Virus record (IMG/VR): IMGVR_UViG_3300030376_001717
Span: 1-34,201 of that record
Strand: one strand, 5' to 3'
Length of the DNA: 34,201 nucleotides
Origin: a virus
Lineage: Duplodnaviria; Caudoviricetes
The first letter of the stretch is position 1, and every line of letters begins with the position of its first letter. Shown piece after piece: positions 5,960-10,582 of this stretch. Made by a program: the position numbers and the translations under genes. The notes below the pieces were generated by a model that searched no databases, was not told the origin of the DNA, and worked only from the letters and a program-made list of their open reading frames with translations.

Positions 5960-6274
5960 ATGAGCGATAAAACAACAATGCACCAATTAGAAAAAAATCT
6001 AATTGAAGAACTAAACGACAATAAAAAAGAAATATTGGAACATGAATATCCTAGCGATTTAATTCATGAATATGCGGATGGGTGGATACCTATATATAAT
6101 AGCGATCTAATAGAAGCATTATCAAGTGATCCTAGTCTAGCTTATGTTGATGATCATGGCTTATTACCAACTGATCCAGGTGTTCACGATATGATAAGAA
6201 CAGCAATATATGAAAGACTTATTGGTGTAGCTTATGAATGGTTGAATGACAATGAAGAGAAAGATGTTGCATAA
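5960..6274 (+). CDS. ocr: Ocr-like (T7 gp0.3) acidic DNA-mimic anti-restriction protein
   Basis: 24 D/E versus 7 K/R in 104 aa. Core D.IH..AD...P.Y..D......S........D.GL.P....V.......IYE.L aligns without gaps to T7 Ocr as recalled from memory (18/55 identical). RBS AAAGGGG. Confidence 0.72.
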   Translation: MSDKTTMHQLEKNLIEELNDNKKEILEHEYPSDLIHEYADGWIPIYNSDLIEALSSDPSLAYVDDHGLLPTDPGVHDMIRTAIYERLIGVAYEWLNDNEEKDVA

Positions 6275-7168: not shown

Positions 7169-7326
7169 TGACTAAAGAAGATTATGTAAAATCTCAAATG
7201 GAAAGTGCTGATACAGATTTTGTAAATGAATTATTATACGAACATTATAATAATGAAGTTAAAAATATGGATCAAAAAGAATTTGAGAAACATTTAGAAA
7301 ATATAGGTTTAAACACAAACAACTAA
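7165..7326 (+). CDS. 53-aa acidic hypothetical protein (not in ORF track)
   Basis: MMTKEDYVKSQMESADTDFVNELLYEHY...; AAGGA RBS; stop codon overlaps the terS stop. Confidence 0.6.
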   Translation: MMTKEDYVKSQMESADTDFVNELLYEHYNNEVKNMDQKEFEKHLENIGLNTNN

Positions 7327-7790
7327 TCCTTTGGTGGTGTAGGTGCTGAGATATTCTCAGCATTTACATCAATTAATTCTGGACTATCTTCCCAACTAAT
7401 TTGAATTTTACTGTCGGAACGTACATCTAACTTTTGTTTCTCTTGGAATATAGAACTCAATCTTGGAGCTAGAAATTTCAGAAAGTCTTTTCGCTCACGA
7501 AGAAACAGCAGCTCGTTTGGAGATAAATCCATATTCTCACTATTAAATATTTGCAGCATCTTCTCAACTAAAGTTTTAATACCTACCTCTTGAGCCTTGT
7601 TAAATTCAGCTTGGAACTTTGGATTTCTTTCTAAGTATTTCTGCAAACTCATCAAGCTGATCTTTAAATCTCTTGCTACTTCTATGGACAGACCTCCATC
7701 GTAAATGGTTTCGAGAATAGTATTTTGTTCTATATCCGAAAGAACTAGATCGCTCTTCTTCTTTGAGGATATACTCTTTGATTTGCTCAT
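7323..7790 (-). CDS. terS: Terminase small subunit (Sf6-like HTH type)
   Basis: N-terminal HTH (GLSIEVARDLKISLMSLQKYL), then NPKF..E...AQE.G and a KFLAP helix; ends in I.ISWE. Confidence 0.65.
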   Translation of the reverse strand: MSKSKSISSKKKSDLVLSDIEQNTILETIYDGGLSIEVARDLKISLMSLQKYLERNPKFQAEFNKAQEVGIKTLVEKMLQIFNSENMDLSPNELLFLRERKDFLKFLAPRLSSIFQEKQKLDVRSDSKIQISWEDSPELIDVNAENISAPTPPKD

Positions 7791-8034
7791 CAGTTTTATT
7801 TCTAAAATTAACTAGGTTTTTTAATATGTTAATCTTCTTTTGTAGTTGTACCTTATTATTCTTAAAAAGTCCTTTGTATTTTCTTGTCTTACTATCCCAA
7901 GACTTTGACCCATTATGGAACATACAAAGATAACGATTGTTAGTGGGTGTATAATAGCCTTTACAACGACACCTCTTACCACTTGTCTTTGCTATGGCTT
8001 CGCAATAAATCTTTTGACTTATTCTTCCTGTCAT
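7606..8034 (-). CDS. HGGxSTG-like Zn-binding protein
   Basis: C.A..K.SG.RC...R.LC.FHNG.S, a divergent HGGxSTG pattern often found next to terS. Confidence 0.55.
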   Translation of the reverse strand: MTGRISQKIYCEAIAKTSGKRCRCKGYYTPTNNRYLCMFHNGSKSWDSKTRKYKGLFKNNKVQLQKKINILKNLVNFRNKTDEQIKEYILKEEERSSSFGYRTKYYSRNHLRWRSVHRSSKRFKDQLDEFAEILRKKSKVPS

Positions 8035-8698
8035 TTAAATCTTTCTTTTTACGTATCACATTCTGATAACCAAAATGGGTTTTCTTTCTTACATTATCTA
8101 CTATGTTTCTTGGTATATCCACCAGCTTCACACCATTTCTATCTTGTTCTTTAAGAGCTAGACTACAATAATATGGATTGTCTTTATCTTCTATTGCTTT
8201 AATTAAGGTCTTGCGGGGGAGGGTACTTAGGACACTAACTATTTTAGATTGGTCTCCTCCTTTATCAGCAACTTCTTTTATTAAGTTAGTTATGTTAGAT
8301 AGATTAATGTTATGTTCTATTAATAGTGAGCCAGCAGACAACTCAGTCCGTTCACTCTGACCTATCCTATTGTCTATATGACCACTCTCTCTATAACCCA
8401 CGATATATCTAGGGTTTATTGTATAGAGAAGTGTACTCGGTAGCCTTTTTTTAGACACTATCTTAACACGTATTAGCCATACTGTGGCTCTGTATATAGT
8501 GCTATAAGATAGACCTGTCATACTAGATATAGTGGCTTTGCGTGGATAACATTGGAGTGTCTTATTATTGACAAACTTTAGTAAACAAATCAACACACAT
8601 AAACAATGTGCCTTATGCTTATTTGGAATGGTTCTAAACTGTGGATCGTCAAAGAGATCGAACCTAACTCTAATATGTGGATCATACTTTTGTTTCAT
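7976..8698 (-). CDS. Phage replication initiator-like protein with N-terminal winged HTH
   Basis: CYPRKATISSMTGLSYSTIYRA..WL...V.K...YT pattern (HTH_36-like), followed by a low-complexity linker. Confidence 0.65.
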   Translation of the reverse strand: MKQKYDPHIRVRFDLFDDPQFRTIPNKHKAHCLCVLICLLKFVNNKTLQCYPRKATISSMTGLSYSTIYRATVWLIRVKIVSKKRLPSTLLYTINPRYIVGYRESGHIDNRIGQSERTELSAGSLLIEHNINLSNITNLIKEVADKGGDQSKIVSVLSTLPRKTLIKAIEDKDNPYYCSLALKEQDRNGVKLVDIPRNIVDNVRKKTHFGYQNVIRKKKDLNDRKNKSKDLLRSHSKDKW

Positions 8699-9065
8699 AT
8701 TTACAATGTTGTTTGTGTTCGTGCTGCAATTGATATAATTCTCTTACCCATTCATCCTCATTCATTAATTCAAACTCTGCATTAGAGAGCCATAGACGTT
8801 TGATCCTAAAGGCTAGGCTACCCTGACCCACTTTCTTATAGAATACCAAAAAACTAGGTATCTGAAGCCGACTAGCAAGGGTTTTTAAGAGGGTGGTACT
8901 CTTATATTTCTGTCCTTTATCATAACACGTTTCAATCATAGCCAAAGGTTCGTAGCATTGGGGACAACACTCGACACTATCCACATCTATCATAGCAATC
9001 CCCTCGTACTGCCTATGCCAATCGTTGTAGCTGCCATTAGAAAATGCGTAAGTCCAACGTGCCAT
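8682..9065 (-). CDS. PD-(D/E)xK-fold nuclease-like protein
   Basis: WHR...MIDVD.VE.C..C.EPLAMIET...L..LA...IP..LV.Y; the ExK lysine position is Cys. Confidence 0.5.
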   Translation of the reverse strand: MARWTYAFSNGSYNDWHRQYEGIAMIDVDSVECCPQCYEPLAMIETCYDKGQKYKSTTLLKTLASRLQIPSFLVFYKKVGQGSLAFRIKRLWLSNAEFELMNEDEWVRELYQLQHEHKQHCKYETKV

Positions 9066-10102
9066 TAATCTTGTTCTGCTTTCATAATAGCTAAACCTAA
9101 CTCTCTTGCAATAAGAGGTACAATAGAATTACCTAAAGATTTTATTCTGTTCTTTCTATCTTTGTCCAATTCATAGGATATGCCATCAGGTGTTCGACAA
9201 AGTTTGGATTGAGCTTCCCACCAGGTTTGTTGTTCTTCAATACTTCTCTCGGTAATGACTTGTCCCTGCTTGGTTTCCATGTCGGTTGATACCCCATGTC
9301 TTTGTGATCCCTTGCTGTTGGTGTTGGAAGTGTTTTTTGTTTCTCCAAATATAACATCGCATCCGATAGCTTTGCTCCGAATGTCATGTTGGGTTTGTTT
9401 TTCTTTCTCAAAACAAAACCTCCACTCTTCGTTTGCTCTACTCTCTTGCTCTGTTCCCCTCCCTCTTCGCAACCTACTGTTGGAGTTGGGTACATCATTT
9501 GTATTTGTTCTAATAAATTTCCAGGAGGTACTGTCTTTCTCCCTATGCTCTCTCTGTATTTCTTTCTCTTCTCCATTGCTGCCGGTGATCTTAATCCTAT
9601 CTCTGTTGCTGTTGGAGTGTGCAATAATCCAGACCCTTTTCCTTTGATGCCACGCACCGATGCCTGAAGCTGGAATAACAACACATTGGACTTCGAAACC
9701 CTCTGCTTCCAAATCTTTTTGTATCTGCTGCAAGACCTTACCTTCGGAGATGTTAATAATGCCTTCAACATTTTCCCCAATGAACCATCTAGGTTTACAC
9801 TCTCTGATGACTCTAATAGTTTCATCCCAGAGATAGCGGTCATCTTCCGTTCCTCTTCTCTTTCCTGCAACACTAAAGGGTTGGCATGGAAACCCTCCTG
9901 TGATGATGTCTGCTTTATATCTGTCTCCTTTGACATTTCTTACCTCGCTTTCTATTGGTATGTTATTAAAATTTTTCTTTAAAACTTTTTGACAAAACTC
10001 ATCTTTCTCTACAAATCCTATCGTCTCAAAATATCCTGTGCTTTCTAGTCCTAAACTAAACCCACCGATACCACTAAATAAATCTAATAGTTTTAACTTC
10101 AT
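9065..10102 (-). CDS. C5-cytosine DNA methyltransferase, alpha-like chain (motifs I-VIII and X, no IX)
   Basis: Motif I LDLFSGIGGF, IV GGFPCQPFS, VI ENV, VIII HQRKRVWIIA, X IKSLGNSIVP. Confidence 0.93.
   Translation of the reverse strand: MKLKLLDLFSGIGGFSLGLESTGYFETIGFVEKDEFCQKVLKKNFNNIPIESEVRNVKGDRYKADIITGGFPCQPFSVAGKRRGTEDDRYLWDETIRVIRECKPRWFIGENVEGIINISEGKVLQQIQKDLEAEGFEVQCVVIPASGIGAWHQRKRVWIIAHSNSNRDRIKITGSNGEEKEIQREHREKDSTSWKFIRTNTNDVPNSNSRLRRGRGTEQESRANEEWRFCFEKEKQTQHDIRSKAIGCDVIFGETKNTSNTNSKGSQRHGVSTDMETKQGQVITERSIEEQQTWWEAQSKLCRTPDGISYELDKDRKNRIKSLGNSIVPLIARELGLAIMKAEQD
9142..9936 (-). CDS. Nested alternative-frame methyltransferase beta-like chain (TRD-like repeats and motif IX)
   Basis: 264 aa open +1 frame entirely inside the MTase gene. 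Has GAGGT 5 nt before its ATG, three (P)TPT repeats and C-terminal GKLNPNFVEHLMAYPMNWT. Confidence 0.72.
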   Translation of the reverse strand: MSKETDIKQTSSQEGFHANPLVLQEREEERKMTAISGMKLLESSESVNLDGSLGKMLKALLTSPKVRSCSRYKKIWKQRVSKSNVLLFQLQASVRGIKGKGSGLLHTPTATEIGLRSPAAMEKRKKYRESIGRKTVPPGNLLEQIQMMYPTPTVGCEEGGEQSKRVEQTKSGGFVLRKKNKPNMTFGAKLSDAMLYLEKQKTLPTPTARDHKDMGYQPTWKPSRDKSLPREVLKNNKPGGKLNPNFVEHLMAYPMNWTKIERTE

Positions 10103-10296
10103 CTAAATACTGTCCTCCAAAACCAAGATCTCATCATAGATATAACTGTAAAGATAACTGCAATATGAAAGCTCTCTAGTATCGTAGGATGTAGATCAAA
10201 GAAAGGAAAGATATACAGCTGAATAAATGTAGATAATATTAAACCGCTGCCTACATCAATAACTGTTTCAAATAGATTTCTTTTATTTGTTTTCAT
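10099..10296 (-). CDS. Small two-TM membrane protein (DUF7220-like)
   Basis: LFETVIDVGSGLILS...IFPFF...IFTVISMMRSWFWR..F; start placed at MKTNK. Confidence 0.6.
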   Translation of the reverse strand: MKTNKRNLFETVIDVGSGLILSTFIQLYIFPFFDLHPTILESFHIAVIFTVISMMRSWFWRTVFR

Positions 10297-10582
10297 TCTT
10301 TGGATTATAAAGTTTATAAGCAAGTGTTAGCTCTTCATCTTTCATAATATCTTTAATTGTTTTCAAGTACCATTTGTTATTAACTTCTACTCTTACACAG
10401 TTAGGATCTTCCGAGTGATTAATAAATGCACCAAGTGGTAATCTGTATAGTGTATCATCAACTTGTATGTGTGATATACCTAGCTCAGTATCTTTTCTTA
10501 TTTCTCTTGTCGCAAATAGACCTAGACCATGAATGAAACTAGGTTTAATCGTGCAGAAAATAGGTAGAGGTTGGTAAGCCAT
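10283..10582 (-). CDS. Minimal SET-domain protein (putative protein lysine methyltransferase)
   Basis: SET motifs IHGLGLFATREI, FINHSEDPNC and DI..DEELTLAY. Confidence 0.88.
   Translation of the reverse strand: MAYQPLPIFCTIKPSFIHGLGLFATREIRKDTELGISHIQVDDTLYRLPLGAFINHSEDPNCVRVEVNNKWYLKTIKDIMKDEELTLAYKLYNPKNENK

Follow-up and report, generated by a model that had tools for sequence, protein, structure and literature searches.

The question raised by this locus is whether a phage gene that reads as a C5 DNA methyltransferase lacking motif IX is completed by a second polypeptide encoded in another frame of the same DNA and, if so, what that polypeptide contributes. The window (the whole stretch of DNA that was analysed) comprises a complete virus record of 34,201 bp that has direct terminal repeats and a GC content of ~33%. 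The phage is a marine phage of the HTVC010P type, its major capsid protein sharing 96.5% identity with its counterpart in Pelagibacter phage HTVC203P and 87% with the one in HTVC010P, and because of this capsid identity its host is probably SAR11.

The longer ORF, alpha, matches PF00145 (E 1e-54) and phrog_363, its residues 3–165 match the catalytic domain of M.HhaI, and it holds the catalytic PC, ENV and RxR by which a C5 methyltransferase is recognized. With motif numbers assigned to both chains according to the established scheme, alpha has motifs I–VIII and X, in agreement with the I, IV, VI, VIII and X read by a first-pass annotation, and motif IX is absent from alpha and present in beta. 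AlphaFold2 models alpha confidently over residues 1–165 (except 72–86 and 147–153) and 322–344, with pLDDT <50 for residues 177–313, and a Foldseek search with this model returns M.HhaI and M.HaeIII. The second ORF, beta, lies wholly inside alpha and is preceded by a Shine-Dalgarno-like sequence, both just where the annotation had put them (Table 1). Residues 8–260 of beta match phrog_1008, 'DNA methyltransferase' (E 2e-24), and beta has no hit in Pfam or NCBIfam; the profile search proposed for both frames was thus borne out in Pfam for alpha, and for beta in a PHROG family instead. Beta's motif IX-like segment is its last feature, and its stop lies 3 codons ahead of alpha's GNS motif X, which upholds the statement that the nested frame closes just before X.

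Table 1. Features of the two-frame methyltransferase gene, in window coordinates.
Feature	Position	Strand	Basis
Alpha ORF, 345 aa, C5-methyltransferase motifs I–VIII and X	9065..10102	-	PF00145 and phrog_363 matches; Foldseek M.HhaI, M.HaeIII
Beta ORF, 264 aa, +1 frame, nested in alpha	9142..9936	-	phrog_1008 match, selection, conservation
Shine-Dalgarno-like GAGGT, 5-nt spacer to beta ATG (9936)	9942..9946	-	Sequence; counts of the core in relatives
Alpha motif I (SAM binding)	10043..10087	-	Sequence, relatives
Alpha motif IV, PCQ	9857..9901	-	Catalytic cysteine C73 invariant in 50/50
Dual-selected stretch, beta 36–103 over alpha VI–VIII; predicted docking helix and strand	9628..9831	-	pN/pS, interface 44–94
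Beta cassette D, residues 105–148, likely recognition module	9493..9624	-	Cassette typing
Beta cassette A, residues 149–202, likely recognition module	9331..9492	-	Cassette typing, pN/pS
Beta cassette B, residues 203–238, last ahead of motif IX	9223..9330	-	Cassette typing, pN/pS
Three 14-nt direct repeats at cassette heads	9315–9328, 9477–9490, 9603–9616		Candidate crossover points
Beta motif IX-like segment, residues 239–262	9151..9222	-	hhalign, pN/pS 0.22, predicted against alpha 323 and 36–44
Alpha linker, residues 177–291	9230..9574	-	Open yet unselected, predicted disordered; pN/pS 2.6 over cassettes
Alpha motif X helix, residues 316–343	9074..9157	-	Sequence and AlphaFold2

The +1 frame is stop-free for 265 codons. 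Alpha was recoded synonymously 20,000 times in each of two null models; 0 recodings reached this length, and the longest stop-free +1 stretch averaged 59 codons in one model and 79 in the other. In the other 14 genes of the window the longest open +1 or +2 stretch is 66 codons, and recoding beta in its turn brings about 25 stops into the alpha frame. Contigs of public sequencing runs speak against compensating indels. The contigs of run X2 tile positions 8900–10300 in 7 listed pieces with zero differences and zero gaps (one overlap is only 1 base long, no single contig covers the whole gene, and X2 may be the source of the window), the listed pieces of run X6 agree across most of the same interval, and eight runs contain no net frame-changing indel within the gene. 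Runs X7 and X17 show joints close to cassette A; these are short-sided and were not counted as evidence. RNA runs also contain contigs of the gene, and contigs cannot show transcription. A 130-aa antisense ORF at 9255–9647 was considered as a further gene and is treated as a shadow, since it has no Pfam hit and its frame is broken by stops in relatives.

Related loci were fetched with beta (41 loci) and with alpha (79 loci) as query, the two sets overlapping and containing near-duplicates, and sub-domain profiles showed 34 of the 41 and 74 of the 79 to be complete. Both frames are open, and beta is always in the +1 frame, in 34/34 of the complete beta-selected and 73/74 of the complete alpha-selected loci; the sole exception among the 74, L108, has one frameshift that breaks both frames. 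Stops confined to the nested frame, which would have told against a conserved second chain, were therefore not seen among these homologs. The incomplete loci mostly run off contig ends; in L040 and L022/L059 the fault is instead a join or a deletion at cassette heads. The detailed analysis used a regex parse that removed 28 of 116 loci and left 62 distinct genes including that of the window, and 50 representatives with alpha identity <90% were chosen; across the relatives alpha varies from 270 to 443 aa with both frames unbroken.

Selection was measured as pN/pS, which was calculated pairwise and not on a tree, so that the pairs are not independent. In the alpha-only region upstream of beta the values are 0.18 for alpha and 1.97 for beta, and over beta residues 5–34 alpha remains at 0.20. 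Over beta 36–103 they are 0.33 for alpha, 0.63 for beta and 1.43 for the third frame; over the cassettes they are 2.60 for alpha and 0.18 for beta, and over motif IX 1.41 and 0.22, respectively. Purifying selection thus shifts along the gene from alpha, to both frames, to beta, which makes the gene a clean case of selection changing frame along a single gene, and the proposed selection check comes out in beta's favor over both the cassettes and motif IX. The middle of alpha, first read as a low-complexity linker, is better described as the shadow of beta's cassette array than as filler.

The first 34 residues of beta seem unselected in sequence, and the start codon is kept: it is ATG in 49/50 relatives, and it is retained where the alpha residue changes from N to D or Y. 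The Asn codon that donates this ATG is AAT in 39/39 cases, compared with 59/106 upstream, and the core of the ribosome site is present in 43/50 relatives, compared with 160/679 other +1 ATGs, although the site may be attributable in part to alpha's acidic residues at that place. Beta is almost certainly a real protein, and its translation would begin at a separate ribosome site on the mRNA that also encodes alpha. Further ATGs stand inside beta at its codons 32 and 38, of note because internal starts mattered in M.EcoHK31I.

Beta consists of a constant N-terminal part, then 1–6 cassettes, then motif IX. The cassettes are mostly 29–54 aa long with an xPTP-like motif at the head of each, and the 151 cassettes of the 50 representative betas fall into 32 types in 43 combinations, the window's array being D-A-B. 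The junctions show conservation across the 151, and the heads are short DNA repeats. Within types A–G pN/pS is 0.10–0.29. No type occurs twice within one of the 50 betas, and each of 94 type pairs keeps a single order (0 seen in both; null mean 22, minimum 15). The array thus changes by presence, absence or replacement in a fixed order rather than by free shuffling. GenBank phage records (Salmonella, Synechococcus, Paenibacillus and Bacteroides phages and phage C75C1) contain nested betas with 1, 2, 3, 4 and 6 cassettes; types D, J, E and H are again among their cassettes, and type D is the sole cassette of Salmonella phage SalP219 (47 bits; reversed control 0).

A profile of cassettes plus motif IX finds 18,380 clusters at E 0.001, a count that may take in ordinary enzymes through motif IX, and 2,780 clusters (50% identity) at E 1e-10. 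A search of the ESM Atlas returned nothing beyond unnamed viral clusters. The suggestion that gene callers miss beta held in part: it is unannotated in 4/4 other phage records opened, while a PHROG family for it exists, at least 2067 predicted homologs are on record and one phage, Diva, has it annotated. In a deep-sea phage record (KT997847; L118, 3797–4633) the same two-frame gene is annotated as two unrelated pieces, and it has a frameshift close to the 5' end of alpha.

Two variant layouts were also observed. Eight of the 50 betas (L004, L007, L031, L077, L078, L081, L091 and L109) extend beyond the alpha stop with further cassettes and carry an extra helix-turn-helix-like domain that they share (E about 1e-11) with 5 of 119 Bacillus-type single-chain multi-module enzymes; it sits within the variable region in the two such enzymes inspected. 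Among 150 distant betas, 7 (P0285, P0303, P0326, P0340, P0361, P0365 and P0384) combine in one chain the cassettes, motif IX (doubled in some) and a segment resembling motif X, a layout like that of M.AquI and Corndog; Pfam did not recognize these seven proteins, and the X assignment comes from our own profile at 15–32 bits.

In solved single-chain C5 enzymes motif IX packs on motif X, and the multimer prediction sets beta's IX against alpha's X. The alpha-beta complex scored 0.86, compared with 0.00 for the best of 3 controls, against a mark that is reached by 116/157 solved complexes and 2/215 mismatched pairs; contact agreement between runs was at least 65% and partner pLDDT at least 60. 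The predicted interface joins beta 44–94, 104–105 and 241–261 to alpha 137–164, 313–345 and 36–44, and the cassettes are otherwise absent from it. In this model a beta helix (about 51–60) would dock on the alpha motif X helix, beta strand 87–90 would pair beside alpha strand 139–144, beta's motif IX would pack against alpha's motif X, and the long middle of alpha would loop out unfolded. The prediction thus favors binding, with IX facing X, in line with the alpha/beta enzyme proposed by the first-pass annotation, though the pass could stem from likeness to the solved single-chain enzymes. Beta alone is modelled by AlphaFold2 with low confidence (pTM 0.23), which makes the best hit of a fold search with that model (Z 3.5) meaningless, and sequence and profile searches of the PDB with beta matched no solved sequence.

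The closest precedent in layout, and the one first invoked for this gene, is M.EcoHK31I, which the accessible parts of two reports describe as an alpha/beta C5 methyltransferase of YGGCCR with a predicted recognition domain in alpha (PMC2836561, PMC3404938) and an alpha chain that is inactive without beta (PMC2836561). Its gene, found through a published primer and fetched as L120, is present in 81/5426 E. coli genomes, was not found in the plasmid collection, and encodes a 309-aa alpha with a TL-like motif and, in the +1 frame, a 176-aa beta; its neighbor is a NotI-family endonuclease. In both genes beta is fully nested in the +1 frame, alpha has I–VIII and X, beta ends in IX before X, and the register at motif VI is the same, partly forced by alpha codons. 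They differ in that the M.EcoHK31I beta starts from alpha codon 104 and the window's 264-aa beta from codon 56, and in that M.EcoHK31I has an adjoining restriction endonuclease and no xPTP array, whereas the window has the array and, among the neighbors scanned, no endonuclease family. The analogy therefore stands for the nested layout and fails for the recognition region, which is predicted to lie in alpha of M.EcoHK31I and likely lies in beta of the window, where the selected variable region is the cassette array and alpha's middle is unselected and predicted to be disordered. Over their whole length the two betas are only marginally similar (profile E 0.04), and hhalign aligns them at motif IX alone (E 7e-4, probability 27%, over a short 21 columns); an N-terminal likeness was discounted, since alpha's motif VI codons force it.

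The module logic resembles that of the Bacillus phage enzymes M.SPRI, phi3T and SPbeta mtbP, whose tandem recognition domains protect the phages according to the sections available of PMC8936443 and PMC12707154. Like them, this enzyme is a phage-borne orphan whose short modules stand in tandem ahead of motif IX, and module number and type vary between VIII and IX, here in the second chain. At six positions following the TP head the residues are like those that follow TL in Bacillus-type enzymes (-2.63 vs -4.7 +/- 0.3; 0/2000 shuffles, best of 15 offsets, with a regex-picked set that includes some false windows), and, as noted above, some long betas have one insert domain in common with such enzymes. 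The known domains have TL where the cassettes have TP, and in the cassettes the variable part comes after the motif and not before it; the Bacillus enzymes are single chains in one frame with tested specificities, whereas in the window the candidate modules belong to a second chain in another frame. SPbeta mtbP goes undetected by the beta profile, and no direct homology to the Bacillus multispecific enzymes emerged from that profile. By analogy, then, the gene would work like M.EcoHK31I in layout and like the Bacillus enzymes in module logic, without one defining feature of each.

True homologs are gp49/gp50 of Diva and PHROG 363/1008 (Paenibacillus larvae phages), which are known by annotation: Diva gp50, labelled 'g49 internal gene', matches the beta profile at E 4e-39 and has three cassettes. 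The accessible text of PMC6070908 lists two methyltransferases for Diva and leaves their nesting unexplained, and that of PMC4351075 notes coding potential in overlapping frames in Corndog. Corndog gp7/gp6 and M.AquI are likewise two-piece C5 enzymes, but their split after VIII puts motif X in the second piece, whereas the window keeps X in alpha. The nested layout is thus already known, from M.EcoHK31I, from the remark on Corndog and from the annotation of Diva; in the literature searched, which included few subscription papers, no description of an ordered array of cassettes within a nested beta came to light.

Conserved frames, selection on beta, a conserved start and ribosome site and the predicted IX–X interface together argue for the alpha/beta methyltransferase reading, and we consider it very probable that alpha and beta form a heterodimeric enzyme. 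Alpha would supply the catalytic domain, and beta motif IX and the three cassettes. That the cassettes set specificity is probable: they directly precede motif IX, and no other region is both variable and selected. Alpha's middle is unselected and so offers no alternative for recognition. Each cassette likely recognizes a different DNA target, and the whole, a two-chain, multispecific orphan C5 methyltransferase with catalysis in alpha and motif IX and recognition cassettes in beta, is the reading we hold to be fairly likely.

The alternative that survives best, unlikely in our estimation, is a two-chain enzyme whose cassettes lack separate specificities and are structural or non-specific DNA-binding repeats serving one or a relaxed target. 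It can draw on the lack of a structural match between beta, in its low-confidence model, and any known recognition domain, on TP in place of TL, and on the lack of association between cassettes and sequence motifs (below). It accounts poorly for 32 distinct types that are each conserved in sequence (by the pN/pS of types A–G), that are not duplicated within a beta and that recur in distant phages, or for a gene with no other variable recognition region. Much less probable is an alpha that is active alone with beta as an accessory or regulatory protein, since alpha has no folded small domain in its model and no selection there, the accessible part of PMC3404938 attributes all specific DNA contacts of solved C5 enzymes to the small domain, and the alpha of M.EcoHK31I, in the account excerpted from PMC2836561, needs its beta for activity.

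We regard as highly unlikely a single chain made by two programmed frameshifts, or a single shift giving a product of I–VIII plus beta that works with alpha. Recoding was left open by the authors on Corndog (PMC4351075, accessible text), and frame-fused predicted proteins occur in metagenomes, but their fusion points vary, as errors would; beta's conserved ATG and ribosome site lie about 110 codons before the end of motif VIII, beta 36–103 is selected and forms the predicted interface, and the alpha linker stays free of stops, something a double shift would not require. In L040, L022/L059, P0044, P0093, P0248, P0251, P0288, P0297, P0310 and P0355 alpha passes into the beta frame by fusion or deletion, and the point of passage varies; these contigs and proteins are likely assembly or sequencing errors and possibly real deletions at repeats. 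About as improbable is that the frames are real and most cassette diversity was made by short-read assembly across shared cassettes or repeats. L040 and L022/L059 are joined at cassette heads, so the count of combinations may be inflated by chimeras, and 49/83 cassette adjacencies were observed once; against this, GenBank phage records hold arrays of the same range of sizes, chimeras recombine types and cannot create 32, and contigs that overlap and are identical cover the D-A-B order of the window. A nested ORF arising by chance or by compensating sequencing errors is refuted by the recodings under both null models, its retention in 62 distinct genes and the eight runs free of net frame-changing indels.

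On the preferred reading of a multispecific two-chain enzyme, the weakest step is its purpose, and we see an even chance that this is anti-restriction, the enzyme shielding phage DNA from several host restriction enzymes. The window strongly avoids a number of short motifs (counts over both strands): GGCC 0/19, GCCC 0/24, CAGCC 0/21, CGCG 0/12, GCGC 2/30, CCGG 2/15 and CACTG 4/27. Each cultured relative avoids a partly different set, and these sets probably mirror host restriction enzymes. As a footprint of this enzyme the avoidance was rejected, GGCC and GCCC being absent also from 4/4 cultured relatives without the gene and GCGC being scarce in 3/4 of them. Relaxed restriction pressure is likewise not shown, because avoidance of GGCC, GCCC and GCGC is as strong in the window as in most relatives that do not have the enzyme. 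Cassette type was not associated with retention or loss of avoided motifs after correction (best p 0.15; per-locus permutation, 7 types, 60 motifs) in the short flanks of 50 loci, with relatedness ignored; pooled counts had appeared suggestive. Self-defence is possibly a minor role of marine viral methyltransferases, in the accessible text of PMC8919816.

The flanking 86-aa and 127-aa genes are present in 4/4 cultured relatives, none of which has a match to alpha or beta; other small genes or, in HTVC034P, a PAPS reductase take the slot, and the methyltransferase gene is accessory. No restriction endonuclease family was found among the neighbor genes scanned, and a 302-aa nuclease-like gene is present also in the 4/4 isolates without the methyltransferase. 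A 104-aa ORF at 5960–6274 (+) matches the ocr-like anti-restriction family phrog_2568 (E 3e-13), has no match in the four cultured relatives and is, by this likeness, a possible second anti-restriction gene. Two genes upstream of the methyltransferase, a 99-aa stand-alone SET-domain ORF (10283–10582, -; PF00856, E 7e-13) likewise has no match in those four. Overlap is seen elsewhere in the neighborhood: a 74-aa DUF7220 ORF (10099–10323, -) has a stop that overlaps the start of alpha, and at 7323–8698 (-) 240-, 142- and 155-aa ORFs overlap in series, the 142-aa ORF having 185 nt in common with a small-terminase-like ORF. A promoter scan gave no excess over shuffles.

Recombination at the shared cassette heads could gain, lose or replace cassettes, and exchange in whole codons would leave alpha open through to motif X. 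We lean slightly toward the view that a very large phage family keeps in this way an ordered, exchangeable library of specificity cassettes in a hidden frame, retargeting one catalytic chain. If true, this would unite the nested beta of M.EcoHK31I with the tandem recognition domains of Bacillus phages in a very common phage gene, and the cassettes would be constrained also to remain stop-free in the other frame. In practice, the annotated ORF expressed alone with recoded codons would lose beta, and the enzyme would seem dead; natural single-cassette versions such as that of SalP219 make the code from cassette to target directly testable, and that code could be used in methyltransferase design and in reading the restriction systems that abundant marine phages face. 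The family would then offer a natural catalogue of small m5C recognition modules, dozens to thousands in number and carried by a separate, exchangeable subunit, and would also document the restriction enzymes that SAR11 and other hosts possess.
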